From NCBI GenBank assembly GCA_964540635.1, contig CAZINP010000004.1:1336-53305 (forward strand): a stretch of 51,970 nucleotides of DNA, given 5' to 3'. The translations under genes were made by a program, and so were the position numbers. The notes below the pieces were generated by a model. It saw nothing but the letters and a program-made list of their open reading frames with translations, did not search any database and was not told the DNA's origin. Source of the stretch: an uncultured Gammaproteobacteria bacterium (GTDB taxonomy: Bacteria; Patescibacteriota; Patescibacteriia; Buchananbacterales; UBA6539). This document shows, piece by piece, positions 1,739-32,894 of this stretch. Position 1 is the stretch's first letter. Every line of letters starts with the position of its first letter.

Positions 1739-1811
1739 ATTGGCGTGAAGAAATTTCTTTGATTTTTTTTGTAAATACAAGGAAAATCAAAGAAAACAAA
1801 AAACAAAATTG

Positions 1812-4800
1812 ATGTTTAGGAAGCTGAAAAATAAAAATTATTTCAGCCTCAAATTCGCTTTTGTGGTCGTGTTTTTTGTTTTATTGATTTTGAGTTTGGA
1901 TTTAAAAACCGCTTTTGCCGGTATCAATAAACAATTAAATTATCAAGGAAGAATCAATACCATTTCCGGTTCAGCCGTGCCGAATGGTACCTATTATATT
2001 AAATTAGCTCTTTATGATGTTTCAAGCGGCGGCACTTGCTTGTGGACGGCTGTTGGTTCGTGTGCGGACGGCAATATCGGCACCACTACGGTTTCAGTCG
2101 TTAATGGCATTTTTTCCGTGCCCTTGGGCGGTGTGAGCCAAAATTCTTTGGCCACTTCCACTATTGATTGGGATAGCGATGAATTATATTTAGGTGTAGC
2201 CATTAGAGGCACGGCTGCCACACCGGTTTATGACGATGAGATGACTCCCAGAAAACGCTTAACCGCTTCGGTTTATGCTTTTAATGCCGATATGATTGAT
2301 GGCATTCATGCGACTTCCACGGCCGCGGTTGCTAATTATTTAGTTTCACTTGATGCCAATAAGATTTTAAACTTGTACGATGGTGGCGTATCAAGTACTT
2401 ATGCCACAACTACTCAATTTTTTGTTGGCACCAGCGATAATCCGGTTTTTAATGTTAATGCTAATAATTACATTAATGTTGGCACGACCACCTTGGCTCA
2501 GAGCACCTTTTCGCAAATGGCTTTTCAAAGGCCATATGGCACCGATTATTTGAACTCAATTTTTATTAATCAGGATTATTCCGGCTCGGGTTTAACCTCA
2601 ACCAGTTCTGCTGCGAGAGTAAGTATGAATGACGTTGGTACTAATTATGGTGAATTATATTTTGGCAATAAAATTTCGGTCGGTGGCAATGCAAGATACT
2701 CATATTTTGAAGCCTGGGATGGCGCCGGAACGCTAACTTATCTTTTAAACGGAATCGGTCAGTATTTGGCCGGTAATTCTACTACGACCGGTTCAACCTA
2801 TTTGGGCACAACAGTTGGTTTGAGTGGGGAATATATCAGTCAATGGTCTGATCTAAGTTCATATCTTTCAATTTCTTCCGGCAATCCATTTGATCAGTGG
2901 CTTGATACCACCTCAACTGTTCAATTTTCAACCGCCACCTCCAGTCGGCTTTATGTTCAGGGAACATCGGGAAATTGCGAAGACATGGGCATTATTTTTT
3001 CCGATTCGGTTTATTCTTCTGATGGTTCGGCAAATTTAACTTTTATTCCTCGCACAGTTGCTTCAGGTATCGGTCTTAATTCAAATTTGTTAGTTGCCGG
3101 AGGGGTTGATTCATTTGGCGCTGGCGCCACGACAACTCTTTTGGTTTCCGGCTCGCTGACAACATTGATGGATGGTGCTTGGTTAAGAACCTCAAATTTT
3201 GAAAGTTCAATTACTCCGGGAGAAATTATACCCATGATAAGTGGTTATAGCAGCGACTCTCAAAAAATGTTATATGTTGAAGATAATTTAGGCATTTATG
3301 ATGTTGATGGGGATGGGGCTGCTTTATCGTTTATGGACAATGCCGGTAATCGCTCAACTCTCTTTTGGAACATTTCTACCCCAACCAATGAGTGGGGAAA
3401 CCTATCATTCTTAGGCGGCATGTATTTAAGTAACGGCTTTGAGGTCGGCAAATCGTCAACTTCCACCGAGCTTGGTGACGGCTGGTATGATACCATAAAA
3501 GTCGGCGCCGGTTTATTGCAAAAAAACCATGTCGGCGATAAGGTTGGTATCCAATTCTCTCAGTCAGCCAGCGATACTCTTTTGGGTTACGGTGTTTTAA
3601 CCGGCAATATCTCAAGTATCTTTACCAATGAACTTAAAGATACATATTCGGCTGATTTGGGATTCTTTACCCAAAATTTTGCTGCCAGCACCACGCCGAT
3701 TGAAGCGATGAGATTGACCCCAACCTCCAGCAATTCCATGCTGCCGTTTTATGCCAGAAATAGTTTAAGTGTTACCGGCAATTCTACTACCACCGGCTCA
3801 AGCTACCTTGGTTCCACGGCCGGTTTGAATGGTGTTTATATTAATGATTGGTCAGACATCGCTACTATTGCCGGTTCCTGGGGAACATCAACCGAGCAAT
3901 ATTTCTGGAACAATACTTCAACCTGGTCCGGGTTTGCTTCGCAGTTTGCTCAATATTTTAATGCCACCACCACTTTAAATGGATTTGATCCGAGCTTATA
4001 CTTTTTAACAGCAAATTTTGGCAGCTACTGGGAGAACTCTTACAACGCCACAACGACACTCAATGGGTTTAACCCATTAGAGTATTTATTGATTTCGGAT
4101 TACATTACTTATTGGAACAACGCTTTTAATTCAACGACCACTTGGGCAGCGTACGATGATAATTGGGCTAGAAATTATAATGCCACCTCCACTTTTGGCG
4201 GTAATTTATCCATTGATGGCAACGCCACCACGACCGGCTCAAGCTACCTTGGTTCCACGGCCGGCTTGAACGGCGTTTATATTAATGATTGGTCAGACAT
4301 TGGCAGTCTAAGCGGCGCCTTAATGTTAACCGATTGGTTTGCCACTTCAACTTGGGCGGGCGGCAATGATTTGGTTGTCAGTGGAACAGCCACTTCCACG
4401 TTTGCCGGCAATGTTGAAATTGCCCAAGGTAAAAATTTACAAGTTGAAACTATTTTTTCATATAGTCCGTTGAATGTTAATACGGATTTGGTTGTTAGCG
4501 GCAACGCCACCACGACCGGATATTTGTCAGTCGGCAATGGTTTTACTGGCGCCGTTTACAGTGATAATAATCTATTGGTTGACGGTTCGGCTTATATTGA
4601 TGAGGGTTTATATGTTTTAAACGGCCCGTCAGTTATGGCCACCACCACCTTATCCGGCTTGTTGACTGTTAATAGCACCAGCACCAGAAATATTGCCGCT
4701 CACTGCAGCGATGAAAATTACGACAATCAGGGTGATTGTGAAACCAATGGTGGAACTTGGTATCCGGCGGCTGATTATGATTTTATAACCAGTGCGGAGT

Positions 4801-7800
4801 CTGGTGGTTATAATTTTTCATCTATATTTCAAAAAAATATTAGCACTGGCGTTTATGGCTACGCCACCAGCACCGATTATACTTTGGGAGGCGAAACCAT
4901 TTCGGCTGGTGTTTTTGGGCTTTCTTCCGATTTTGGTGTTATTGGCTTAGGCGGTAGTGTTGCTGGTTTATTTTATAGTCCCAACCAAGCAATTTATGCG
5001 GTTGGTGAGAGTACTTTTATTGGCGCCGCCCATTTTTATACCAATCAATTTAACTTGGGCGCAGAAGGCAACCCGTTGCTTTCCATTTCCGCGACTTCAA
5101 TTGGCGTTGGTCAGTATTCGGCGCCAAGTGAATTTTTAGGTGTGCAACCTTCAGTTGATGCCGGAGAAATTGCAACTGCCAGATTTAAAACCTGGAATAA
5201 TACCGATCAATTATTTTTAGATTCAACCGGTAGAGTTGGTGTTGCCACCACCACGCCCGGCGGCTACTATGGCGAAAAATTAACCGTGGTTGGTGGTGCC
5301 TATATTCAAGGAGGATTGTATGTAGACGGTATTAAAAACGATTTGTTGCCCGCCTTTGATGATACATATTCTTTGGGTTCATCGGATAAAAGATGGAGTA
5401 ATATTTGGGGCCATAATTTAAATATATATGGCACAGCGACCGTAACTCAGCTTGTTGCCAATAATATACATTCAGATTTGAATCCCAGTGCTGACTTAAC
5501 CTATTCTTTGGGAACCTCAACTGCTCGTTGGGATGAAATTTGGGCAAACAGCATTAATATAACCGGCACCACCACCCTAAGTCAAATTATAATTCAGAAC
5601 GGTTTAAATTTTTCCGGCTCTTTGGAAAAGTTAGCCGACGATTTAGAGTTGCCGCATAAATTAAGAAATATTTATACGGCTGACGGTTATGTTTACGCCA
5701 TTACTTATGCTACCGACAGTGTTAATTCATTTAGAATTATTGATGTCTCTAATCCATCCAAGCCACGAGTGGTGGGTGGCGAAGGTTTAAGCGGCTTGCC
5801 TTTGTCTGACGGTAAGCGTGTTTGGGTTAGTGGCAATTACGCTTATTTGCTTTATAATGCCACCGGTGGATTAAAGAATCCTTTCCGTATTGTTGATGTG
5901 TCAGACAAATCAAATCCGGTTGTGGTTGGTGGTCAAAATTTATATTTTGACACAATTGATACGACTCCTGGTCAGCCGTTTTATGTCTCAGGTAAATATG
6001 CTTATATTTTAGGAAGCACCAATCTTTTTATTGTTGATATTTCAGATCCTTATGATCCGAAATTGGTTTCATCATTGAATGGTGTTGGTTTTACAAACTG
6101 GGACATTAAGGTTCAGGGTGACTATGCTTATGTTTGTAGTCGAAAGAATATTAGCGGTGAAAACAACCCTTTAACCATTGTTAATATTAAAGATAAGAAA
6201 AATCCATTTATCACCAAGGAAATGACTTTCCCGACTTCGGATTTGGATCCCGGGTCATATTGTTGGTCATTGGATGTTTCCGGTGCTTATGTCTATTTGG
6301 GCTTGGGAGAAATCGGAGTAAACCCAAGGGATGAAATATTTAGGATTGTTGATGTTTCTGATCCCTACAATCCGGTTTCGGTTGGTGGAGCCAATGTTGG
6401 TATTAATGATGATCCTGATTTTGAGTTGCCGGAATCAGCCGGTACCATAAGTTATTTAAAGGTTTTTGGCACCCGAGTTTATGCCACGGCCTGGAATGGT
6501 TATTTCTTGGTTATGGATGTTGCTTCTTCAACCAATCCAAAGGTTATCAGCAAAAATTATATTAATGATCCTTCTTATGCCACCACCGGTTGGCCGGTAA
6601 CCTTTGATGTTAAAGGAAAGCATGTCTATGTCGGCTATGCTCCGATTATGGATTATTATGCCACCTCAACCGGCTATTTTAGAATATTTGATTTGCCCGG
6701 GGCTGATATTTGGGGCGGTCACTCCGACGCGTTTTCCGCCGGCTCCTTGCAGGTCTTAAACAACGCTGTCTTTAATCAAAGATTAACCGTTTTGGACAGT
6801 TTGGAAATCGGTTCCGGTGGTTTGTATTCGCAGGGTGCTTTATCGGTTTTAGCCACTTCCACTTCAAGCTATTTTGGCGGCTATCTCGGACTTGGTACAA
6901 CCACGCCAAATTATCGATTGGTTGTTAATGCTTCCAACACCACTGATTATTTATTCCAAGTTGCCAGCAGCACTCACCAAGGAATTTTTGAAATCAGAAA
7001 CGACGGCATCGCCAGATTCGGTTATGATTTTATTGTTAATGGTACCGCCACTTCCACTTTTGCCGGCAATATCCAAATCGCTCAAGGAAAGAATTTGCAG
7101 GTGGAAAATATTTTTGCCTACAGTCCGCTTAATATAAATACCGATTTGAAAATTTTTGGCAACGCCACTACAACCGGCGACCATATCGTCAATGGTACGG
7201 TTCGGGCCACCACATTGACTCTTGGTGGAGTCGAGATAAGCAGTTGGTCTGACATTATTAGCGCTGCTGACCTATGGGCCACTTCTACGGAACAGTATTT
7301 CTGGAATAACACTTCCACCTGGTCGGGCTATGACAGCAATTGGGCCAGAAATTATAATGCCACTTCAACTTTCGGCGGTGATTTGACTATTGGTGGGGCA
7401 GCCACCACGACGGGTCAATTTGTAGCTGTGGGCGGACTCAAGTCAGACAGTATTTTCCTTAACGGAACAACAATTACCAATTGGTCTGATTTGGGTGATA
7501 TTTTGGGCGCACGCAATCCGTTTAATCAATGGCTTGATTCCACTTCCAGCGTGGCTTTTGCCACCACTACAGTTAGCGGTCAATTAACAGCCAGCAGTAC
7601 GACTGCTCGTTTGGTGGCAGCCCATTGCAGCAGTGATGATTATGATAATCAAGGTGACTGTGAAAGTAATGGTGAAACTTGGTATTCTGACGACGACCAT
7701 CAATTTACTACAATCGCCCAAACCAGCAACTACGGCTATTTCCCACTATTTGATAATTACTTTAGTGCTGGTGTTTATGGCTATTCAACCTCAACTGATT

Positions 7801-10373
7801 ATACCAATGGCGGAATAGGCAGTGTTGGCGTTTACGGTAAAGCATCAACTGTTGGTTTGGCGGGCGTAAGTGATAAAATTGGTGGCTTTTTCTATGGTGG
7901 AAGTCAGGCAATAATGGCTATTGGTAATAGCACGTTTATGGGTAGCGGTATCTTTATGACAAACAGTTTTTATGTCGGTTCCGGGAGTAATTCTTTACTT
8001 AGCATTAATAGTGGCTCTATCGGTCTTGGTCAATATACGGCCCCAAGTGAATTTTTCGGCGTTCAACCTTCAACTGATGCCGGTGAAATCGCAACCGCCA
8101 GGTTCAAGACATGGGACAATGTTGATCAATTATTCTTAGGTTCAAATGGCAGCGTTGGTGTTGGCACAACTACGCCCGGTGGCTATTATGGTGAAAAATT
8201 AACCGTGGTTGGTAATTCATATTTCCAGGGCAATTCAACCACAACGGGCAGGTTAGTGGTAACTGACACCTCAACCTTGGCTACAACCACAATGAGTTAT
8301 GGCAGTAAAATTGGAAATTTAAGCGAAGGTAGTTACATGATGTTGACAACCACTAACCTTAACGACCCAGGTAACTTGGGCGTTTCGGTTGGGAATATTC
8401 CGGTTATCAGTTTTTCAAATTCAAGTGAAATTATTAATAATCATACCGGCGGCATAAACAGTTCTTTGATTATTCTTGAAGATTTATTTGGCAGTGGCAG
8501 TGAAGATCCCGACTCTGGAGATTTGCCCACTTTAACCTTTGCCTCAAAAGATATTTCTACCTTAAGTGCGGCAAATATTATATTTGCCACCACAACAACA
8601 GAATTAAATTTTACGGGCGCATCAAAATATAATTTTGACGCCGATGTTTATGCTAATGGTATTTTGCTAACCGGTGCTGACTACGCGGAATATTTCTATA
8701 CCAAAGATACTGATTTGTTGCCCGGCGAAGCGGTTTGTATGGATGTTACCAAAGACAACACTATTTCTCGCTGCACGCGTTTGGCCGACTCAAATATCAT
8801 TGGTATTGTTTCCAGCAAACCGGCAATTACCGGCAATAATAATAAGGAATATATTAATAATCCTAACTACAAGATTATCGGTTTGTTGGGTCAGGTGCCG
8901 GCAAAGGTCAGTACCGAAAACGGCCAAATCAGGCCGGGCGATTCGTTGGCCGCGGGCTCTGTTCCCGGATATTTAGCTAAAGCCAACGCGGGTGATTCAA
9001 CGGTTGGTGTTGCCTTAGAGGGTCTGGAAAGCGGTAATGGCATAGTTAATGTTTTGATTTCTCGCCGCAATAAAAGCTTGACGGTTGAAGAAATTGAAAC
9101 TCAGATAACAGACAGAATTGCTCAGATGGAGATTGAGGATGAAGTTAATGTTCTAATTTCCAATGCTATAAATAATCTTGATATAGATCAGGAGGTTTTG
9201 GATGCAATTGCCCCGGAACTAATATCGCTTGAAGCGAAGATAAATTTAAGCCTTGATGTGCTTTCAAATTCTATTGACGGCAATAATCTTAATATCAAGA
9301 ATTTACAAAATACCGCCGATGACTTTGATTTGCGTATCAATAATCTCGAAGATGCCGTAGAGTCTTTCCAAGATTTTGCTTCATCAACCAATTCTTTACT
9401 TGTTGCTTTTAACTCAGACATTGTTGATTTGCAAAGTCAGAATTTGGAAATGTCGCAGAATTGGCAGTCGGCCACGAGTTCAATTTCTTATCTCTCAGCT
9501 CAAATTGAAAATATTAATCAGATTTTACAAAGTAATGCCGAAGTAGAAACCGAGCTGACTGTTTCGCAAACTGATTTATCAATTAATAATTTGTCGGTTT
9601 CAGAATCTGCCACTTTCTACGGAACAATTTTGGTTAAGGGTGAGGCCGGCTTTGAACATAAAGTGACTTTCTACGAAGATATTATTGTCAAAGGTAAGAT
9701 TTATGCTTCCAAAGACCAGGCCGGCACGGCAATAATCCCGGCTGGGCAGACTTCGGTTGATGTGGTTTTTGGGCAAGAATATTTGAATGCGCCAAAGGTT
9801 GTGGCTAATATAAATGATGATGACGAAACGGTTTTTGCCAACTTCAAGGTGGCCAGAAAATCAAGCAAAGGTTTCAGTATTGTTTTGCAGGAAGCGCTTG
9901 AAAAAGATGTAGCTTTTGACTGGATTGCTTTAGCCATTCAGAGCCAAGCGCCAATTATCCAGGCAATTATTCCTTCGGCTGAAGTTGTGCCTTCCGATAG
10001 CAGTGTTGATTTTCAGGCTCAGGTAATTGATAGCGATACTCTGGAAAATGATTTGAAATATTCTTGGGAAATAACCTCCGGTCCGGGTACTGTCACCGGC
10101 GATACAAGTCACGCGGTTTGGTCTTTAGGTGGTCAGACAATTGAAGCAGATGCTGATTTGGAAATAAAATTAACCGTAATCGATGAGTCAAATATTGTTT
10201 CGCAAACCAAGACGATAAAGATTAAATTTGTTCAAGAAGATGTTTTGTCAGAAGATGAAAGTGGTCAGGAAACACTAACCGAAGAAGACGCCTTAGAGGA
10301 AATTGAAGCACCAATTCAAACCGAGACGGTTTCCGAAGAGAATGATCCCATACCAGAAGGCGCCGGCGAGTAA
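1812..10373 (+). CDS. Giant (~2850 aa) secreted/membrane-anchored modular surface protein: signal/TM, NYQG domain, Thr/Asn-rich repeats, LVIVD repeats, GADYAE autocleavage-type domain, coiled coil, C-terminal beta/Ig-like domains, acidic tail
   Basis: Single ORF; N-terminal basic plus hydrophobic segment; repeats of type RIIDVSNPSKP/FIVDISDPYDP/RIVDVSDPYNP; LLTGADYAEYF motif; ATG 1812 (TTG 1809 alternative). Confidence 0.88.
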   Translation: MFRKLKNKNYFSLKFAFVVVFFVLLILSLDLKTAFAGINKQLNYQGRINTISGSAVPNGTYYIKLALYDVSSGGTCLWTAVGSCADGNIGTTTVSVVNGIFSVPLGGVSQNSLATSTIDWDSDELYLGVAIRGTAATPVYDDEMTPRKRLTASVYAFNADMIDGIHATSTAAVANYLVSLDANKILNLYDGGVSSTYATTTQFFVGTSDNPVFNVNANNYINVGTTTLAQSTFSQMAFQRPYGTDYLNSIFINQDYSGSGLTSTSSAARVSMNDVGTNYGELYFGNKISVGGNARYSYFEAWDGAGTLTYLLNGIGQYLAGNSTTTGSTYLGTTVGLSGEYISQWSDLSSYLSISSGNPFDQWLDTTSTVQFSTATSSRLYVQGTSGNCEDMGIIFSDSVYSSDGSANLTFIPRTVASGIGLNSNLLVAGGVDSFGAGATTTLLVSGSLTTLMDGAWLRTSNFESSITPGEIIPMISGYSSDSQKMLYVEDNLGIYDVDGDGAALSFMDNAGNRSTLFWNISTPTNEWGNLSFLGGMYLSNGFEVGKSSTSTELGDGWYDTIKVGAGLLQKNHVGDKVGIQFSQSASDTLLGYGVLTGNISSIFTNELKDTYSADLGFFTQNFAASTTPIEAMRLTPTSSNSMLPFYARNSLSVTGNSTTTGSSYLGSTAGLNGVYINDWSDIATIAGSWGTSTEQYFWNNTSTWSGFASQFAQYFNATTTLNGFDPSLYFLTANFGSYWENSYNATTTLNGFNPLEYLLISDYITYWNNAFNSTTTWAAYDDNWARNYNATSTFGGNLSIDGNATTTGSSYLGSTAGLNGVYINDWSDIGSLSGALMLTDWFATSTWAGGNDLVVSGTATSTFAGNVEIAQGKNLQVETIFSYSPLNVNTDLVVSGNATTTGYLSVGNGFTGAVYSDNNLLVDGSAYIDEGLYVLNGPSVMATTTLSGLLTVNSTSTRNIAAHCSDENYDNQGDCETNGGTWYPAADYDFITSAESGGYNFSSIFQKNISTGVYGYATSTDYTLGGETISAGVFGLSSDFGVIGLGGSVAGLFYSPNQAIYAVGESTFIGAAHFYTNQFNLGAEGNPLLSISATSIGVGQYSAPSEFLGVQPSVDAGEIATARFKTWNNTDQLFLDSTGRVGVATTTPGGYYGEKLTVVGGAYIQGGLYVDGIKNDLLPAFDDTYSLGSSDKRWSNIWGHNLNIYGTATVTQLVANNIHSDLNPSADLTYSLGTSTARWDEIWANSINITGTTTLSQIIIQNGLNFSGSLEKLADDLELPHKLRNIYTADGYVYAITYATDSVNSFRIIDVSNPSKPRVVGGEGLSGLPLSDGKRVWVSGNYAYLLYNATGGLKNPFRIVDVSDKSNPVVVGGQNLYFDTIDTTPGQPFYVSGKYAYILGSTNLFIVDISDPYDPKLVSSLNGVGFTNWDIKVQGDYAYVCSRKNISGENNPLTIVNIKDKKNPFITKEMTFPTSDLDPGSYCWSLDVSGAYVYLGLGEIGVNPRDEIFRIVDVSDPYNPVSVGGANVGINDDPDFELPESAGTISYLKVFGTRVYATAWNGYFLVMDVASSTNPKVISKNYINDPSYATTGWPVTFDVKGKHVYVGYAPIMDYYATSTGYFRIFDLPGADIWGGHSDAFSAGSLQVLNNAVFNQRLTVLDSLEIGSGGLYSQGALSVLATSTSSYFGGYLGLGTTTPNYRLVVNASNTTDYLFQVASSTHQGIFEIRNDGIARFGYDFIVNGTATSTFAGNIQIAQGKNLQVENIFAYSPLNINTDLKIFGNATTTGDHIVNGTVRATTLTLGGVEISSWSDIISAADLWATSTEQYFWNNTSTWSGYDSNWARNYNATSTFGGDLTIGGAATTTGQFVAVGGLKSDSIFLNGTTITNWSDLGDILGARNPFNQWLDSTSSVAFATTTVSGQLTASSTTARLVAAHCSSDDYDNQGDCESNGETWYSDDDHQFTTIAQTSNYGYFPLFDNYFSAGVYGYSTSTDYTNGGIGSVGVYGKASTVGLAGVSDKIGGFFYGGSQAIMAIGNSTFMGSGIFMTNSFYVGSGSNSLLSINSGSIGLGQYTAPSEFFGVQPSTDAGEIATARFKTWDNVDQLFLGSNGSVGVGTTTPGGYYGEKLTVVGNSYFQGNSTTTGRLVVTDTSTLATTTMSYGSKIGNLSEGSYMMLTTTNLNDPGNLGVSVGNIPVISFSNSSEIINNHTGGINSSLIILEDLFGSGSEDPDSGDLPTLTFASKDISTLSAANIIFATTTTELNFTGASKYNFDADVYANGILLTGADYAEYFYTKDTDLLPGEAVCMDVTKDNTISRCTRLADSNIIGIVSSKPAITGNNNKEYINNPNYKIIGLLGQVPAKVSTENGQIRPGDSLAAGSVPGYLAKANAGDSTVGVALEGLESGNGIVNVLISRRNKSLTVEEIETQITDRIAQMEIEDEVNVLISNAINNLDIDQEVLDAIAPELISLEAKINLSLDVLSNSIDGNNLNIKNLQNTADDFDLRINNLEDAVESFQDFASSTNSLLVAFNSDIVDLQSQNLEMSQNWQSATSSISYLSAQIENINQILQSNAEVETELTVSQTDLSINNLSVSESATFYGTILVKGEAGFEHKVTFYEDIIVKGKIYASKDQAGTAIIPAGQTSVDVVFGQEYLNAPKVVANINDDDETVFANFKVARKSSKGFSIVLQEALEKDVAFDWIALAIQSQAPIIQAIIPSAEVVPSDSSVDFQAQVIDSDTLENDLKYSWEITSGPGTVTGDTSHAVWSLGGQTIEADADLEIKLTVIDESNIVSQTKTIKIKFVQEDVLSEDESGQETLTEEDALEEIEAPIQTETVSEENDPIPEGAGE
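3792..4300 (+). repeat. 68-nt intragenic direct repeat (3792-3859 and 4233-4300)
   Basis: ACCGGCTCAAGCTACCTTGGTTCCACGGCCGG...GATTGGTCAGACAT; 3 synonymous T/C differences. Confidence 0.9.
5110..8213 (+). repeat. Duplicated ~60-aa module (about 5110-5295 and 8028-8213)
   Basis: GQY[ST]APSEF[LF]GVQPS.DAGEIATARFKTW.N.DQLFL...G.VGV.TTTPGGYYGEKLTVVG occurs twice. Confidence 0.9.
5680..6700 (+). repeat. LVIVD-type repeat array (probable beta-propeller) in giant protein
   Basis: About 7 repeats of type v.v.g.yaY...fRIvDVSdP.nP..vG; boundaries approximate. Confidence 0.75.
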
Positions 10374-10435: not shown

Positions 10436-10756
10436 TTAGATTTTCAAGTCATCGACAACTGAGGTATCAGCATCAATGTGTCTTGATCTCTTTGAACCTT
10501 CCGGTTCATAGATTTTGAGGTTGACGCGAGCATTGTTCTTGGCGCCGACGATCTTCAACAAAGTTCTGATCGCTCTGGCGGTCTGGCCTTGGCGGCCGAT
10601 GACATAGCCCATGTCAGAAGGATTGAGATGAAGAGTAATTAATACTCCCATTTCATCCACAGTTCTGTCGGTTTTAACGTCTTCAGGATGAGCCACAATG
10701 GCTTTGACGACGTATTCGACAAACTCCTGATCGGATTGTTTAGCTTCCATATTCAT
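10436..10756 (-). CDS. khpA: KH-domain RNA-binding protein KhpA (YlqC family)
   Basis: FVEYVVKAIVAHPEDV...DMGYVIGRQGQTARAIRTLL (KH GxxG loop); neighbour of rpsP/trmD. Confidence 0.9.
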   Translation of the reverse strand: MNMEAKQSDQEFVEYVVKAIVAHPEDVKTDRTVDEMGVLITLHLNPSDMGYVIGRQGQTARAIRTLLKIVGAKNNARVNLKIYEPEGSKRSRHIDADTSVVDDLKI

Positions 10757-10885
10757 TCGTTAACATTCCGCATGGCGGAATGAATTACTTACATTTCCAC
10801 CAGTACTGCCGACCTACTAGGCAACTTTTGAGAAAAGCTGCCAAAAAACAGTCTGGTACCAGCCTGAGGCAAAGGCCTTAAGCTT
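10757..10885 (-). ncRNA. Structured 5' leader of khpA
   Basis: Sense-strand helices GGCAGCUUUU-CUC-AAAAGUUGCC, CAUUCCGC-CAU-GCGGAAUG and enclosing UACCAGACUG/CAGUACUGGUG. Confidence 0.5.
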
Positions 10886-10890
10886 TTAAT

Positions 10891-10918
10891 ATTATATCAT
10901 ATTTTTTATATTTGTCAA
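10891..10918 (-). promoter_or_regulatory. sigma70 promoter for khpA
   Basis: TTGACA, 16 nt, TGa-TATAAT on minus strand. Confidence 0.75.
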
Positions 10919-10932
10919 TCTATTTTTTTTAT

Positions 10933-10960
10933 AAAAAAAGCTGCCGGTGTGCCCAGCAGC
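10933..10960 (-). terminator. Terminator downstream of serA
   Basis: Minus strand GCTGCTGG-GCACA-CCGGCAGC followed by T7. Confidence 0.8.
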
Positions 10961-10978
10961 CGTTCGGTTTTTGCCAAT

Positions 10979-12295
10979 TTAGGCAATACGCGCAACCAAC
11001 CTGATTACGCCCGTGATTTTACCAAGTTCGTCTTGGACATCTGCTCCAACCATTTCGTTCAGGGAAATCATGGTGCATGCAAAACCTTGCTTGCCGGAGA
11101 TGGTGTGAAGAGTATCAATATTTTTCCCTCGCTGTGCAAAACAGTTTGAGATTTGTTGAATCATGCCCGGCTGATCAAGGTGAAATACGGTCAAGCTGAA
11201 TGCCCCTTGGCCCAAACACGCATCGGGGTAATTCACCCCGTTTTTGTGTTCGCCGCTATTCAGCCAAGCAACAACTTGGTTAGCACCCATTGTGGCGCAG
11301 CGCGATTCAGATTCAATTGTCGCCGCGCCGATATGGGGCAGGCAAAGGGTGTTGGGCAAAGAAAAAATGGGATGGTTTGGATCATCAACATCAGAGGCAT
11401 AGCCGCTGATAAGCGGGTTTTTTCCGGTCATGCCCTGGTGCAAAGCATCCAGATCAACAATGCCGGCTCTGGCCAGGTTCAAGACCCTGGGTTTTTGTTG
11501 GCACAAAGCAATTTGATCGCTGCCAAACAGACCTATTGTTTTGGAATTTAAGGGCACGTGAACAGTGACAAAGTCTGAGTGCGCCAGAACATCCGCAAGA
11601 TTGGTGCGCATTACGCCCTCAACTTCGCGGGTAGGGCAAGGGTCAAAACCCAAAACTTTCATCCCCAAGCCCATGGCTCTGGTGCAGACCTTAGCGCCGA
11701 TAAACCCGGCGCAACCGATCACGCCCATAGTTTTACCATAGAGCTCGGTACCAATATACCCGGATTTTTTTAGCGTGTGCCCGGTGATGGCGTCGCTAAT
11801 CATTTTGTTGAATTGAATCCTGGAACTGGCATCGTCAATGGAAAAAACGATGTCACTTTTTAATTGCGAAAGCGCCAAAATTGCGCCGGCATTTTTTGCC
11901 GCCAAGGCCACATTGTGGGATAAGGCCATGGCGCACAGAATTGTTTTTTCCGCCACCGAGGTGGAGTTTTGGCCGGGAGTATTCTGAACCAGAATTCCGT
12001 TTTCGCAAGCGGCGATCAAATCAATGTTGTCTGTGCCTGCTCCGAAGCGAACAATCAACTCAACGCCATGCTCGCGCAAAATCGTAAGGGCTTCCTTGTT
12101 CAGGGTGGTGCCACTTCTCAAACAAACTGCCCAAATGTGGCCACCATTGATCTCAAGCGAGTCAAGAAAGTTTTTCAACGTCTGAGCGTTGTCTTTGAAA
12201 CCAAAAGCGGTTTCTACCACCTCAAGTCCGGCCGACTCAAGAATCGGCCTTGCCTCAGGCCCGATGCCGTCAAGAAGTAAGACATGTTTTTCCAT
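10979..12295 (-). CDS. serA: D-3-phosphoglycerate dehydrogenase with C-terminal ACT domain
   Basis: RFGAGTDNID, NTPGQNSTSVAE, GTELYGKTMGVIG, DFVTVHVPL, NLARAGIVD, PHIGAAT; ACT HLDQPG...NI; purine-rich SD AAAGGAAAAG. Confidence 0.85.
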   Translation of the reverse strand: MEKHVLLLDGIGPEARPILESAGLEVVETAFGFKDNAQTLKNFLDSLEINGGHIWAVCLRSGTTLNKEALTILREHGVELIVRFGAGTDNIDLIAACENGILVQNTPGQNSTSVAEKTILCAMALSHNVALAAKNAGAILALSQLKSDIVFSIDDASSRIQFNKMISDAITGHTLKKSGYIGTELYGKTMGVIGCAGFIGAKVCTRAMGLGMKVLGFDPCPTREVEGVMRTNLADVLAHSDFVTVHVPLNSKTIGLFGSDQIALCQQKPRVLNLARAGIVDLDALHQGMTGKNPLISGYASDVDDPNHPIFSLPNTLCLPHIGAATIESESRCATMGANQVVAWLNSGEHKNGVNYPDACLGQGAFSLTVFHLDQPGMIQQISNCFAQRGKNIDTLHTISGKQGFACTMISLNEMVGADVQDELGKITGVIRLVARIA

Positions 12296-12330
12296 TTTCT
12301 TTTCCTTTTCAGGTTGATTGTAAAAGGTCG

Positions 12331-12370
12331 ATATAAATAAACAAACCTTCCGGAGGCGGAAGGCTTGTTT
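12331..12370 (-). terminator. Attenuator terminator in serA leader
   Basis: AAACAAGCCTTCCG-CCTC-CGGAAGGTTTGTTT (14 bp, one G-U) followed by ATTTATAT; lies between leader peptide and serA SD. Confidence 0.75.
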
Positions 12371-12388
12371 CTATCTAAATTCTTTAAT

Positions 12389-12469
12389 TTAGGCAAAAAT
12401 AAACCTTGCGCCAGGAAAAGGGCATGAGCCGGAACTTGATGAGGTTAAGGCAAAAAGGTTTGTTTTCAT
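12389..12469 (-). CDS. Ser-rich leader peptide (26 aa) of serA
   Basis: ATG AAA ACA AAC CTT TTT GCC TTA ACC TCA TCA AGT TCC GGC TCA TGC ... GCC TAA = MKTNLFALTSSSSGSCPFPGARFIFA; starts 6 nt after the -10 box. Confidence 0.75.
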   Translation of the reverse strand: MKTNLFALTSSSSGSCPFPGARFIFA

Positions 12470-12475
12470 ATTTTT

Positions 12476-12503
12476 ATCTTAGCAGAAAAATAATTGTTGT
12501 CAA
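12476..12503 (-). promoter_or_regulatory. sigma70 promoter for leader peptide/serA
   Basis: TTGACA (12503-12498), 16 nt, TGc-TAAGAT (12481-12476). Confidence 0.75.
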
Positions 12504-12506
12504 ACC

Positions 12507-12533
12507 AAAAACCGCCCGGCAAGGGCGGTTTTT
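12507..12533. terminator. Terminator after rpsP
   Basis: AAAAACCGCCC-GGCAA-GGGCGGTTTTT. Confidence 0.85.
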
Positions 12534-12543
12534 GAAAGAGAGT

Positions 12544-12936
12544 TTAGGCAGCCGGTTTTTCAGTTTTGGGTTCTTCGGCAGCCGCCGGGGTTTCAGCGCC
12601 TGCATCGGCTACAGTTTCGGTAGCCGGAGTTTCAGCCGGTTTAGCGGTAGCCTCCGGTTCAGCTTTTTTCTTGCCAGCCTTAGAAGCTTTAACTTTTTTA
12701 CCGGTGATTATATTTTGATCAACCAAGAGGTTGTGGGCAGTAGGTGAGCATTGAGCGCCTTTTTCCAGCCAAAAAAGAACGCGATCTTTTTTGACGTCGC
12801 AGACTTTGGAAAAAGGATTATAGCTGCCTAAGATTTCTAAACTTTTGCCATACAAATCTTTTTGGCTGTCTGAGACCACAAAGCGATATGTCGGTTGTTT
12901 TTTCTTACCCACGCGAGCTAAGCGAATTTTTACCAT
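12544..12936 (-). CDS. rpsP: 30S ribosomal protein S16 with Ala/Glu/Pro/Thr-rich tail
   Basis: MVKIRLARVGKKKQPTYRFVV.DS...LGSYNP. Confidence 0.97.
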   Translation of the reverse strand: MVKIRLARVGKKKQPTYRFVVSDSQKDLYGKSLEILGSYNPFSKVCDVKKDRVLFWLEKGAQCSPTAHNLLVDQNIITGKKVKASKAGKKKAEPEATAKPAETPATETVADAGAETPAAAEEPKTEKPAA

Positions 12937-15906: not shown

Positions 15907-15972
15907 AATTAATCAAAAGGAGTTGTTCTTTTCCCATTGTCTTTACCCTCAACCCGCAGGAGACTTGAATCT

Positions 15973-17037
15973 ATGGAACAGAATTGGCTGGTTAGGGGCG
16001 CATTTACCGCCCTGGTAACACCGCTTAATGCGGACGGAAAAATTGACTGGCAGGCATATTTTCGCCTGTTGGATTATCAGGCTTCAAACCATGGTTGGTT
16101 GGCCGGATTGGTTCCGGCCGGCACCACCGGGCAATCGCCCATACTATCGCCAGAGGAGCATATTATGCTCAACGCCCGGACGGCTTTTTTTTGCCGGAAG
16201 AATGGCTTGAGTTGCATTGCCGGTACCGGCAGCAATTCCACCGAAGAGGCGACACACTATTCTATGCAAGCGGCCCATGACGGGGTCGATGGCATTTTGT
16301 TGGTTGATCCCTACTACAATCGTCCGCCTTCGCCACAATTGGTGGAAGAGTATTACCGCCCAATCATAGAGGCGGTTATCAGGGTTAATCCGCAAATCAG
16401 GGTGGTGCCATACATCATCCCCGGCCGCACCGCCACCCAGCTTTGGCCGGAGGATTTAGCGGCTTTGAATCGGAAGTTCCCCCAAAACGTGGTGGCGGTC
16501 AAAGAAGCCACCGGCAGCGATGAAGTTCGCCGCCAGATTCGCAAAAATTGCGGTCGCGATTTTTCCCTGCTTTCCGGGGATGATTCGGCAACGGCCGAAA
16601 TGATGGCTGACAAGGAAATTATGGCTTCCGGTGCAATCTCGGTAATCAGCAATCTTTTGCCCCAAGCCGTAGGCGAAATGACGCAAGCCGGAATCCAGCA
16701 TAACTGGGATATGCTTGGCAGTCTTCATTCGGCGCTTTCGCCCTTGTTTAACCTGGTCACCGTGGAAGTTGACCATCCATGCTATAAGGGCAGAAGGGTT
16801 CGCTACCCCAATCCGGAACCGATCATGACCATGATGGCCGGTTTGGGGATGATTAAGCCGTTTTTCGGTCAGCCGCTTGGCTTCATGAACATCGAGGCCG
16901 TTTCGATTGTTCGCCAGGCCTTAACCAAGGTCTTTCACGACCATCCCTATTTTTTTGAAGATCTGTCCGATTTTTGGAAGATTGACGTTGCCGCCAAATT
17001 GGCGGATAACAAAAATTGGGATTGCTTGTGCCGATAA
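15973..17037 (+). CDS. dapA: 4-hydroxy-tetrahydrodipicolinate synthase (DapA family) with C-terminal extension
   Basis: GAFTALVTP, GTTGQS, GTGSNST, PYYN, YIIPGRT, AVKEATG (Schiff-base Lys), LSGDD; AGGAG before ATG 15973 (TTG 15937 alternative). Confidence 0.85.
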   Translation: MEQNWLVRGAFTALVTPLNADGKIDWQAYFRLLDYQASNHGWLAGLVPAGTTGQSPILSPEEHIMLNARTAFFCRKNGLSCIAGTGSNSTEEATHYSMQAAHDGVDGILLVDPYYNRPPSPQLVEEYYRPIIEAVIRVNPQIRVVPYIIPGRTATQLWPEDLAALNRKFPQNVVAVKEATGSDEVRRQIRKNCGRDFSLLSGDDSATAEMMADKEIMASGAISVISNLLPQAVGEMTQAGIQHNWDMLGSLHSALSPLFNLVTVEVDHPCYKGRRVRYPNPEPIMTMMAGLGMIKPFFGQPLGFMNIEAVSIVRQALTKVFHDHPYFFEDLSDFWKIDVAAKLADNKNWDCLCR

Positions 17038-31571: not shown

Positions 31572-32894
31572 ATGTTTTTTTGGATAAAAAAAATAGTTCC
31601 CAAGCCAATATTTAAAATTTATCATTATACTCTTGCTCAAGCGGCAAGGTTATTTTACAATTCGCCCTCAGAAAAATTAATCGTTATCGGCGTAACCGGC
31701 ACTTCCGGGAAAACAACAGTTGTGTATTTGATAACCAAAATTTTGGAAAGAGCCGGTTTTCGAGTTGGCTGCTCGTCAACGGTGATGTTTAAGGTGGGCA
31801 AGAAAGAATGGTTGAATGATAAAAAAATGACCATGGTCGGCCGTTTTGCTTTACAAAAACTTTTAAAGCAAATGGTTAAAGAAAATTGTCAGTACGCCGT
31901 TATTGAAACGACTTCCCAAGGAATTGAGCAGTATCGTCACACCGGTATAAATTATGATACGGTTGTTTTTACCAATTTGTACCCGGAACATATTCAGGCG
32001 CATGGCAGTTTTGAAAACTATAAAAAAGCAAAGCTCAAGTTATTTGCCAAATTGGAGGATGAGGATTCAAAAAAGTTTGCCGGTTTGCCGGTTAAAAAAA
32101 CAATTATTGCCAATTTGGATGACGAGCACGCAAAAGATTTTTTAAACAATTGGGCAGATGAAAAAATCGGCTTCACCCTTGAGAGTAAAAAGAATGACGA
32201 AGTAAAAGTTATTGACGTGCTAAATTCAAGCACGAGTGCTGAAGGTATAGAATTTTATGTTCAGGATCAGAAATTTTCGGTTAATCGTTTTGGGCGACAT
32301 AATATTTATAATTGTGCGGCGGCGATTGCTGTTGGTTTAACTCAAGACTTAAGCCTTGAATCAATGGCTGCAAATTTGAAGACCTTGCCGCAGATGCCCG
32401 GAAATTTTGAGTTAATTCAAGAAGGACAGAATTTTAAAGTTATTGTGGATTACGCTTTTGAGCCAAAAGCGGTTGAGTCGTTATATGGCATTGTTAAAAA
32501 TATTTCCCACAATAATATTATTCACGTACTTGGTTCAACCGGCGGGGGACGGGATAAGGCGCGTCGGCCGATTCTGGGTAAGTTAGCCGGTGAGAATGCC
32601 GATTACGTAATTGTGGCAAATGAGGACCCATATGACGAAGATCCGGCTGAAATTATTGAACAGGTTTTGGCCGGTGCCAAAAGCGCAGGCAAGAAGTTAA
32701 ATGTAAATTTGTTTAAATATCTTGATAGGCGCCAGGCAATTGCCAAGGCATTAAGCCTGGCCAACGAAAATGATTTGGTTTTAATCACCGGCAAAGGCAG
32801 CGAACAAGCCATTGTGGTCAAAAAGAACAAAAAAATTCCGTGGGATGACAGAACGGTTGTCAGAGAAGAGCTAAAAAAGAAAGTATCATCTTAG
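31572..32894 (+). CDS. murE: UDP-N-acetylmuramyl-tripeptide synthetase
   Basis: IGVTGTSGKTT, IETTSQG, FTNLYPEHIQAH, VIVDYA, GGGRDKARRPILG, LITGKGSE. Confidence 0.9.
   Translation: MFFWIKKIVPKPIFKIYHYTLAQAARLFYNSPSEKLIVIGVTGTSGKTTVVYLITKILERAGFRVGCSSTVMFKVGKKEWLNDKKMTMVGRFALQKLLKQMVKENCQYAVIETTSQGIEQYRHTGINYDTVVFTNLYPEHIQAHGSFENYKKAKLKLFAKLEDEDSKKFAGLPVKKTIIANLDDEHAKDFLNNWADEKIGFTLESKKNDEVKVIDVLNSSTSAEGIEFYVQDQKFSVNRFGRHNIYNCAAAIAVGLTQDLSLESMAANLKTLPQMPGNFELIQEGQNFKVIVDYAFEPKAVESLYGIVKNISHNNIIHVLGSTGGGRDKARRPILGKLAGENADYVIVANEDPYDEDPAEIIEQVLAGAKSAGKKLNVNLFKYLDRRQAIAKALSLANENDLVLITGKGSEQAIVVKKNKKIPWDDRTVVREELKKKVSS

Follow-up and report, generated by a model that had tools for sequence, protein, structure and literature searches.

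How might a bacterium of the candidate phyla radiation (CPR) adjust the expression of a putative serine biosynthesis gene to its supply of amino acids? The question is raised by a locus in a stretch of 51,970 nucleotides (nt) of contig CAZINP010000004.1, the whole of which we call the window. On its minus strand, a gene for a SerA-like homologue of D-3-phosphoglycerate dehydrogenase (PGDH) is preceded by a promoter, a short open reading frame (sORF) rich in serine codons, and four RNA segments (segment 1, 12466-12455; segment 2, 12407-12396; segment 3, 12370-12357; segment 4, 12352-12339). A first-pass annotation had read this arrangement as a serine-codon attenuator upstream of a serA-type gene, and the promoter, the sORF and the four segments all lie on the minus strand where it had placed them. 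The present computations establish the elements themselves, how they are conserved, covary and are spaced, and how they fold at equilibrium. The reading is upheld by a frame-specific, Ser/Cys-rich sORF in all 13 orthologous leaders, by covariation in both alternative helices, by a nearly fixed geometry and by folding with masked ribosome positions. Sequence comparison and modelling together make it very probable that a ribosome-mediated leader-peptide transcription attenuator controls the SerA-like gene through charged tRNA-Ser, and probably also through tRNA-Cys.

A predicted leader peptide with many serine and cysteine codons

The sORF (12469-12389, minus strand) has 26 codons and a stop and would encode the peptide MKTNLFALTSSSSGSCPFPGARFIFA. 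Its regulatory run, codons 10-16, reads TCA TCA AGT TCC GGC TCA TGC (S S S S G S C; 12442-12422, minus strand) and sits 12-30 nt 5' of the 5' arm of the antiterminator described below. Among the 379 short ATG ORFs in the window, this one is the densest in Ser and Cys codons, and no other has six of them within an eight-codon stretch. In the genes of the window, Ser makes up 5.4-6.7% and Cys 0.8-0.9% of the codons.

Orthologues were sought in a search that covered 5.8 billion proteins. The SerA-like enzyme belongs to a clade of 15 clusters at 40-99% identity, after which identity falls to 36% or less for the ordinary SerA of 389 amino acids (aa). Contigs of the clade gave 13 distinct orthologous upstream regions, with downstream enzymes 40-58% identical; a search of metagenome contigs for orthologues added only L081, L082 and the partial L083. 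No close orthologue was found in species-representative genomes; the best match there is only 37% identical, and thus the clade is not among the species representatives. All 13 spacers have a common architecture, which consists of the rpsP terminator, a -35/extended -10 promoter, the sORF, the segment GGYGNAAGKTTDATTT, TAA, an apical hairpin, and a terminator with a U tract. The Ser-codon runs and covarying stems that the first-pass annotation had proposed to look for in related upstream regions were found in every one of these leaders. In a motif scan of 177 sequences (1.18 Mb), the segment 2 motif was confined to leaders of the clade. An upstream sORF with at least six Ser/Cys codons in eight was present at none of 154 more distant SerA loci, as compared to all 13 clade leaders. 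Seven matches to the motif of segment 2 and stop in viral contigs were rejected as chance matches in AT-rich DNA without the architecture.

The promoter-proximal sORFs of the 13 leaders have 26-33 codons, including 5-11 Ser and 1-4 Cys codons; MKTNLHQIWSCSCSCSCSGSQTGGRFIFA, MKIAFNQNSSWSNCSSGSSCLFGGRLIFA, MKINLNQNCSWSNGSSSSSSSCCRFFSGRLISG and MKKYYLSGSSSCSGCLCSTYFGVRLISA are examples of the peptides. Ser and Cys together account for 51% of the central sORF codons in frame 0 vs. 3% and 2% in frames 1 and 2, with 14% expected from base composition. Ser takes 39% of the central codons, about 6-7-fold over the window genes, and Cys takes 11%, about 12-fold. Because Cys codons are co-enriched, relatively more strongly than Ser, the element is probably a sensor of Ser plus Cys. 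The earlier proposal of Ser-tRNA sensing is thus borne out by the conserved Ser run but should probably be widened to Cys. The leader Ser codons are drawn from both codon boxes and 69% of them are TCN; TCA supplies 50%, as compared to 22-24% in the window genes.

The ATG and segment 2 are separated by a distance of 1 modulo 3 in 12 of the 13 leaders, across six length classes (58-79 nt). The stop falls exactly 21 nt past the start of segment 2, again in 12 of 13, and the Ser/Cys codons lie mostly 9-54 nt 5' of segment 2. The exception is L176, in which a 1-nt deletion relative to L173 shifts the stop to a TAA within segment 2; the C-terminal peptide is altered, the RNA segment is intact, and a ribosome would still finish on segment 2. 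Both ends of the sORF are conserved (N-terminal MKxNL..., C-terminal ...GGRLIFA). Since the L176 frameshift alters the peptide and not the RNA segment, the conserved GGRLIFA reflects a constraint on the RNA.

The two closest leader pairs show 9 synonymous changes, 2 non-synonymous changes (both past the L176 frameshift) and one whole-codon indel. In distant pairs the peptide sequence diverges freely and the Ser/Cys composition is kept. To judge from the sequences, such divergence fits an ORF that works as a sensor rather than one that encodes a functional peptide, and the sORF is probably translated by ribosomes.

Some further features of the codons were noted. A single Trp codon (TGG) stands just before the Ser run, in the motifs WS or WF, in 9 of the 13 leaders (L162, L163, L164, L166, L169, L173, L175, L176 and L082), and Gly codons are regularly interspersed (SSGS, SGS, CGSC). 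Glycine and the side chain of tryptophan derive from serine. Gly is not clearly enriched in the leaders (7% in frame vs. 4% and 0% in the other frames), and these Trp and Gly codons could be extra regulatory codons or a matter of plain shared ancestry. L169 and L170, which carry the same protein (P0007) in two samples, differ in the sORF by one base; the change from CCA to TCA replaces Pro with Ser and gives one extra Ser codon.

Competing RNA helices and the position of the ribosome

Segments 3 and 4 form an intrinsic terminator (12370-12333, minus strand) with a 14-bp stem (6 G-C), a 4-nt loop (CCTC) and a U-rich tail (ATTTAT). The antiterminator (12412-12355, minus strand) is a three-tier hairpin in which segment 2 (12412-12394 in the helix) pairs with segment 3 (12373-12355); within this hairpin lie the sORF stop (12391-12389) and a smaller, apical hairpin. 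Segment 1, which as a helix arm spans 12467-12449 of the minus strand (nt 3-21 of the transcript), can also pair with segment 2. The window leader folds better than its shuffles (z = -3.07), and its minimum free energy structure is the long three-tier hairpin of segments 2 and 3, i.e. the antiterminator. The calculated energies in the window are -21.9 kcal/mol for the antiterminator, -20.2 kcal/mol for the terminator and -14.2 kcal/mol for the duplex of segments 1 and 2, the last being matched by 0.3% of shuffles. Over the 13 leaders they range from -15 to -28, from -8 to -22 and from -12 to -21 kcal/mol, respectively.

Pairing and covariation were counted on a structure-blind MAFFT alignment, with slid controls and 500 shuffles. 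In the antiterminator helix 93.5% of the cells are paired (35-56% in slid controls) and none of the 500 shuffles reached the covariation score. For the outer 9 bp of the terminator helix the corresponding values are 88.9%, 27-61% and 0 of 500, and for the helix of segments 1 and 2 they are 84.6%, 42-66% and 25 of 500. Alignment column 154, in segment 3, covaries with its partner in segment 2 (AU, GC, UA) and also with its partner in segment 4 (UA, AU, CG, GC). Because this column covaries with partners in each, selection evidently acts on both of the alternative helices. The terminator and the antiterminator are present in all 13 leaders, and the RNAalifold consensus structure is the antiterminator.

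Folding with ribosome-masked positions, which had been suggested earlier as a check, was carried out on the 13 leaders and gave the outcome expected of an attenuator. With a 29-nt footprint at the stop, the probability of the terminator was at least 0.79 in 10 leaders, and that of the antiterminator was about 0 (at most 0.04) in all 13. When the ribosome was placed on the middle Ser/Cys codon instead and helices that span it were disallowed, the antiterminator reached 0.61-0.99 in all 13, even at full-length equilibrium. Stall folding in which segment 1 was allowed to pair around the ribosome gave mixed results; a helix that spans the ribosome is physically unrealistic, and this setup was replaced by folding of the 3' part only. 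In nascent untranslated RNA, the pairing of segments 1 and 2 had a probability of 0.80-0.99 in all 13 leaders. Once segment 3 was present, the antiterminator was thermodynamically preferred over this pairing in 12 of 13.

We also examined whether the leader acts on translation of the gene. In the window, CTTTTCCT (12420-12413) is the exact complement of AGGAAAAG (12306-12299), which overlaps the Shine-Dalgarno (SD)-like AAGGA of the SerA-like gene (12307-12303). This complementarity, pointed out in the first-pass annotation, is real but is not conserved: in 11 of 13 orthologues, the duplex energies of the leader against the 22 nt 5' of the gene ATG do not differ from chance. Leader:SD pairing was therefore rejected as a conserved feature and is considered incidental. 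An SD-sequestering hairpin 3' of the terminator was rejected as well, its folding energies being no different from those of shuffles. Because no conserved SD-sequestering structure was found, control appears to be transcriptional only.

Proposed mechanism and its alternatives

The mechanism that we propose is as follows. Transcription would start at the strong promoter, and the first bases of the transcript would probably be the AUG of the 26-codon sORF. A ribosome would translate the sORF while RNA polymerase moves on. When Ser and Cys are plentiful, the ribosome would reach the UAA inside the antiterminator, 21 nt past the start of segment 2, and its footprint would cover segment 2. Segment 3 would then pair with segment 4 to form the terminator, and the transcript would stop about 40 nt ahead of the gene (the SerA-like gene begins 43 nt past the leader terminator). 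When Ser-tRNA or Cys-tRNA is scarce, the ribosome would stall on the SSSSGSC codons, which lie 12-30 nt upstream of segment 2, and leave that segment free to pair with segment 3 as soon as the latter is made. The terminator would not form, and the gene would be transcribed.

Several points weigh against this mechanism. The 13 leaders share kinship, and the conservation counts are not independent. All folding was done at equilibrium and not kinetically. In L169, L175 and L082, which have the weakest terminators, placing a ribosome at the stop does not suffice to make the terminator the preferred structure. In 8 of 13 leaders, RNA free of ribosomes prefers the antiterminator at equilibrium, and the classical rule that absence of translation means termination may not hold here. 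Because the antiterminator is preferred once segment 3 is made, termination without translation would need a kinetic trap. The covariation of segments 1 and 2 is weak. The regulated enzyme scores below both curated PGDH cut-offs (209 bits with TIGR01327, cut-off 454; 158 bits with NF008759, cut-off 404). Finally, in four leaders (L168, L174, L175 and L082) the ATG follows the -10 hexamer at a distance of 20 nt, which predicts a 5' untranslated region (5' UTR) of about 14 nt without an obvious SD for the sORF; in L168 and L174 this 5' UTR carries segment 1.

Two parts of the mechanism are less certain. It had been proposed that segment 2 pairs with either segment 1 or segment 3. Pairing with segment 3 is strongly supported, whereas the helix with segment 1, besides its weak covariation, is predicted to lose to segment 3 at equilibrium. 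This helix is the least certain element, and the chances that it has a functional role are evenly poised; it may be an RNA polymerase pause hairpin or an anti-antiterminator. As a pause hairpin, it could in principle take the place of the kinetic trap.

The other part is the leaderless start. The sigma-70-type promoter (12503-12476, minus strand) consists of a -35 element TTGACA (12503-12498), a 16-nt spacer and an extended -10 element TGcTAAGAT (12484-12476), with the TG at 12484-12483 and the -10 hexamer TAAGAT at 12481-12476; it matches 10 of 12 consensus positions plus the TG. It is kept in the nine orthologues in which it was read (TTGACA or TTGACT, a 16-17 nt spacer, TGn, TAnnnT). The ATG (12469-12467) lies 6 nt past the -10 hexamer, and exactly this distance is found in 9 of the 13 leaders. 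From the 6-nt spacing, together with the conserved -35, the 16-17 nt spacer and the TG, the expected +1 falls on the A of the ATG. The pattern of promoter plus ATG occurs once in the window, with 0.31 occurrences expected. The promoter geometry thus fits a leaderless start in the window and in nine leaders but not in the four with a 5' UTR, and we consider the leaderless start claimed earlier to be rather likely.

Other explanations of the locus were weighed against the attenuator. The element may be primarily a cysteine sensor like the poly-Cys leader ORFs of mycobacteria, with Ser codons secondary and the gene switched on chiefly because cysteine is made from serine. This would agree with the stronger enrichment of Cys (about 12-fold, vs. 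about 6-7-fold for Ser), with the presence of at least one Cys codon within or just past the Ser run in all 13 leaders, and with L162, which alternates SCSCSCSC. However, Ser outnumbers Cys in every leader (5-11 vs. 1-4) and the sORF of the window includes only one Cys codon. Consecutive Cys codons, by which the mycobacterial ORFs are defined (10.1101/834739), were found in L173 and L176 only. The regulated enzyme, moreover, would catalyse the first step to serine and is not cysteine-specific, and a sensor primarily of cysteine seems unlikely to us. Very unlikely, in our estimate, is a functional Ser/Cys-rich micropeptide (metal-binding or modified) encoded by the sORF, in which case the downstream gene would be reached only by incidental read-through. 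The sORF does have its own strong promoter followed by a strong terminator, and its N- and C-termini are conserved, but these termini are also where the two RNA segments 1 and 2 lie, and the 1-nt deletion of L176 changes the C-terminal peptide and spares the RNA segment. The central peptide is free in sequence and length, and only its Ser/Cys composition is kept. No genes for modifying enzymes or transporters were found near the clade loci. The antiterminator covaries and overlaps the terminator, which a simple gene end would not need, and no separate promoter was seen ahead of the SerA-like gene in the window locus.

A switch that binds a metabolite or a tRNA (a riboswitch or T-box-like element), with the ORF there by coincidence, would also use a mutually exclusive terminator and antiterminator as its expression platform, and a Ser-specific T-box lies upstream of serA and controls it in Paenibacillus polymyxa (PMC8002221). 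Against such a switch, no Rfam family, T-box included, was found at threshold. The only variable part upstream of the helices is the coding run, which changes by whole codons with the frame kept and is 51% Ser/Cys in one frame only. The approximately 55 nt upstream of segment 2 show no conserved structure and cannot accommodate a T-box Stem I together with a specifier. We regard such a switch as extremely unlikely. The Rfam search gave no family at its gathering score anywhere in the window, no T-box match there, and nothing near threshold in the leader region under permissive settings. The models of the Thr, His, Trp, Leu and Phe leaders all stayed below their thresholds; the best amino-acid leader score was that of Phe_leader (25.5 bits vs. 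a gathering score of 55). No tRNA was found across the window. The attenuator that reads Ser and Cys codons through the ribosome is therefore the explanation that we carry forward.

The putatively regulated gene, its surroundings and known systems

The SerA-like gene (12295-10979, minus strand) encodes a protein of 438 aa with 2-Hacid_dh catalytic and NAD domains and a C-terminal ACT-like domain. The two NCBIfam models given above are its best ones, and both are PGDH equivalogs. In a PDB search the top 21 matches were all D-3-phosphoglycerate dehydrogenases, and the match to E. coli SerA runs through the ACT domain. The enzyme is thus closest to PGDH but below the curated cut-offs. The label SerA-like is justified; that the enzyme is SerA, as had been assumed, and makes a serine precursor, we infer. 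The Ser/Cys leader gives independent support for the SerA identity of this divergent enzyme. As compared to human PHGDH and other solved PGDHs, it has an insertion of about 35 aa (residues about 133-176) between the substrate-binding and NAD-binding domains; the clade enzymes are about 435 aa long because of this insertion and the ACT domain. In L161, from a 99%-identical strain, an ACG stands at the position of the SerA-like ATG of the window (12293-12295, minus strand). The gene caller chose a GTG 25 codons downstream, which gives 413 aa (L161 gene, 4001-5242), and no alternative in-frame start was found upstream of the conserved N-terminus in L161. The ACG may be a non-canonical start, a sign of a damaged gene or a sequencing error.

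The RecA encoded in the window is 89% identical to that of Candidatus Buchananbacteria, and its remaining named matches are Parcubacteria/Patescibacteria. As far as protein similarity goes, the guess that the host belongs to the CPR holds, and the organism is assigned to Candidatus Buchananbacteria.

Along the minus strand from 13,100 to 10,400, the order is rpsP, terminator, promoter, sORF, attenuator terminator, SerA-like gene, terminator and khpA. The gene rpsP (ribosomal protein S16; 12936-12544, minus strand) is separated from the leader's own promoter by the rpsP terminator hairpin (12529-12507, minus strand), read off the sequence as ACCGCCC-TTGCC-GGGCGGT followed by TTTT; an equivalent hairpin stands ahead of the promoter in the orthologues too. 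The leader-serA transcription unit is closed by an intrinsic terminator (10961-10939, minus strand). Next comes a separate khpA promoter (10918-10891, minus strand; TTGACA-16-TGnTATAAT, 12 of 12 consensus positions), followed by khpA (10756-10436, minus strand). The 5' leader of khpA is about 135 nt long (within 10757-10918) and has no Rfam match. Wherever an orthologous contig was long enough, the order rpsP, spacer, dehydrogenase, khpA was held. In the common arrangement rpsP-khpA-rimM-trmD, rpsP and khpA adjoin; trmD is still downstream in L173. The unit of promoter, leader, gene and terminator, found between rpsP and khpA in the window (10436-12936) and in L161, L163, L164, L166, L171, L173 and L175, resembles a self-contained cassette placed inside a ribosomal operon. 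The SerA-like clade has only 15 protein clusters; the relatives of the window RecA number hundreds.

A semi-conserved motif YTTNACAA (TTTACAA, TTGACAA or TTCACAA) is found 10-25 nt 5' of the SD of the SerA-like gene at most orthologous loci, with CCTTTTACAA (12314-12323) as the copy in the window. It is retained despite inserts of 60-110 nt after the terminator in L173 and L174. No significant SD hairpin formed by the motif and no suitably spaced -10 element after it were found. Other housekeeping genes in the window are polA, holA, ileS, murE, rpoB, rpoC, ftsK, recA, efp and rpsF. An ORF of 2854 aa (1809-10373, plus strand) has a TTG start, an N-terminal signal/transmembrane-like segment, a composition rich in Ser, Thr, Gly and Asn, and long internal repeats, which suggests a giant surface protein of a kind common in CPR genomes; L161 has a counterpart of at least 2045 aa at the same place. 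A DapA-like gene (15937-17037, plus strand) scores 172 bits, below the TIGR00674 cut-off of 206, and murE (31572-32894, plus strand) is of the diaminopimelate (DAP) type. These two genes hint at residual biosynthesis of amino acids and cell-wall precursors in this genome.

Leader-peptide attenuators of enterobacteria include trpL, hisL, pheL, leuL and the multivalent thrL and ilvL, of which thrL responds to Thr plus Ile. The present element resembles these classical systems in its short leader ORF rich in codons for pathway products, in the 5' arm of the terminator that is shared with the antiterminator, in a stop placed so that a finishing ribosome masks segment 2, and in the upstream segment 1 complementary to segment 2. 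The closest analogue is thrL, whose run mixes Thr and Ile as the present run mixes Ser with Cys, which is made from Ser. Unlike in the classical attenuators, whose general model has been described (PMC1183508), Ser and Cys would be sensed here, and the sORF is probably at the 5' end of the mRNA without an SD. Furthermore, the regulatory codons are placed in the loop that separates segment 1 from segment 2, outside segment 1 itself, and the stop codon is inside the antiterminator hairpin. The antiterminator is also stronger than the helix that segment 1 forms with segment 2, so that read-through may occur when the RNA is not translated. The controlled unit is a single gene and not an operon, in the CPR/Patescibacteria phylum, and the element is homologous to none of the Rfam leader models in sequence or structure.

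In the mycobacterial leaderless polycysteine sORFs (Ms5788A, the 'Cys ribulon'), stalling of the ribosome prevents a duplex from sequestering the downstream ribosome-binding site (RBS) (10.1101/834739). Cys leader peptides in mycobacteria had been predicted earlier, and no terminator was found there (PMC1262725). The present element would share with them a leaderless first-cistron sORF, Cys stalling codons, a downstream biosynthetic gene of the Ser/Cys family, and relief of repression by stalling. However, control is translational in mycobacteria, whereas here a covarying terminator and antiterminator are found and SD sequestration is not conserved. At least two consecutive Cys codons are present in L173 and L176 but not in the window sORF with its one Cys, and in place of an RBS-sequestering duplex there is leader:SD pairing at chance in 11 of 13 orthologues, with no significant SD hairpin. 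The Ser-specific T-box of Paenibacillus has in common with the present element the class of gene, the charging of tRNA-Ser as input and a choice between terminator and antiterminator as output. It differs in binding uncharged tRNA directly without translation; the present element appears to be read by ribosomes and has no T-box features. In Bacillus subtilis, the TCN Ser codons of sinR act as a sensor of serine supply through slowing of the ribosome (PMC3862929). Ribosome slowing at Ser codons is common to both cases, and TCN codons, which are the sensitive ones in sinR, are also the majority of the leader Ser codons here. In sinR, however, the codons lie within the gene of the regulated protein itself and affect its yield, with no leader ORF or RNA switch.

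To our knowledge, leader-peptide attenuation is known for few phyla and few amino acids (Trp, His, Phe, Leu, Thr, Ile/Val and translational Cys variants), and we know of regulation of serA otherwise only through proteins or T-boxes. In the open-access full-text literature, no paper that joins CPR with leader-peptide attenuation and none on a serine-codon leader peptide was found. On balance we think it likely that the element is the first leader-peptide transcription attenuator recognised in CPR and the first for the serine family, a multivalent Ser/Cys sensor in which the ribosome loads on a leaderless 5' AUG. A conserved Ser/Cys attenuator would fill a gap in what is known of amino-acid regulation, and would do so in bacteria that are widely regarded as amino-acid auxotrophs. 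A 2024 review states that Patescibacteria lack amino-acid biosynthesis among other pathways and that their regulation is virtually unknown (PMC11665869). The leader, of about 130 nt, is a compact natural part that might be put to use as a switch responsive to amino acids in organisms whose genetic tools are just emerging. If the mechanism is true, transcription and translation would be physically or kinetically coupled in these bacteria, and their ribosomes must keep pace with RNA polymerase. The attenuator would also have arrived with its gene, as a self-contained cassette of promoter, leader, gene and terminator between rpsP and khpA. A subset of Parcubacteria, namely Buchananbacteria and relatives, would then synthesise serine de novo and turn on the pathway in response to a falling supply.

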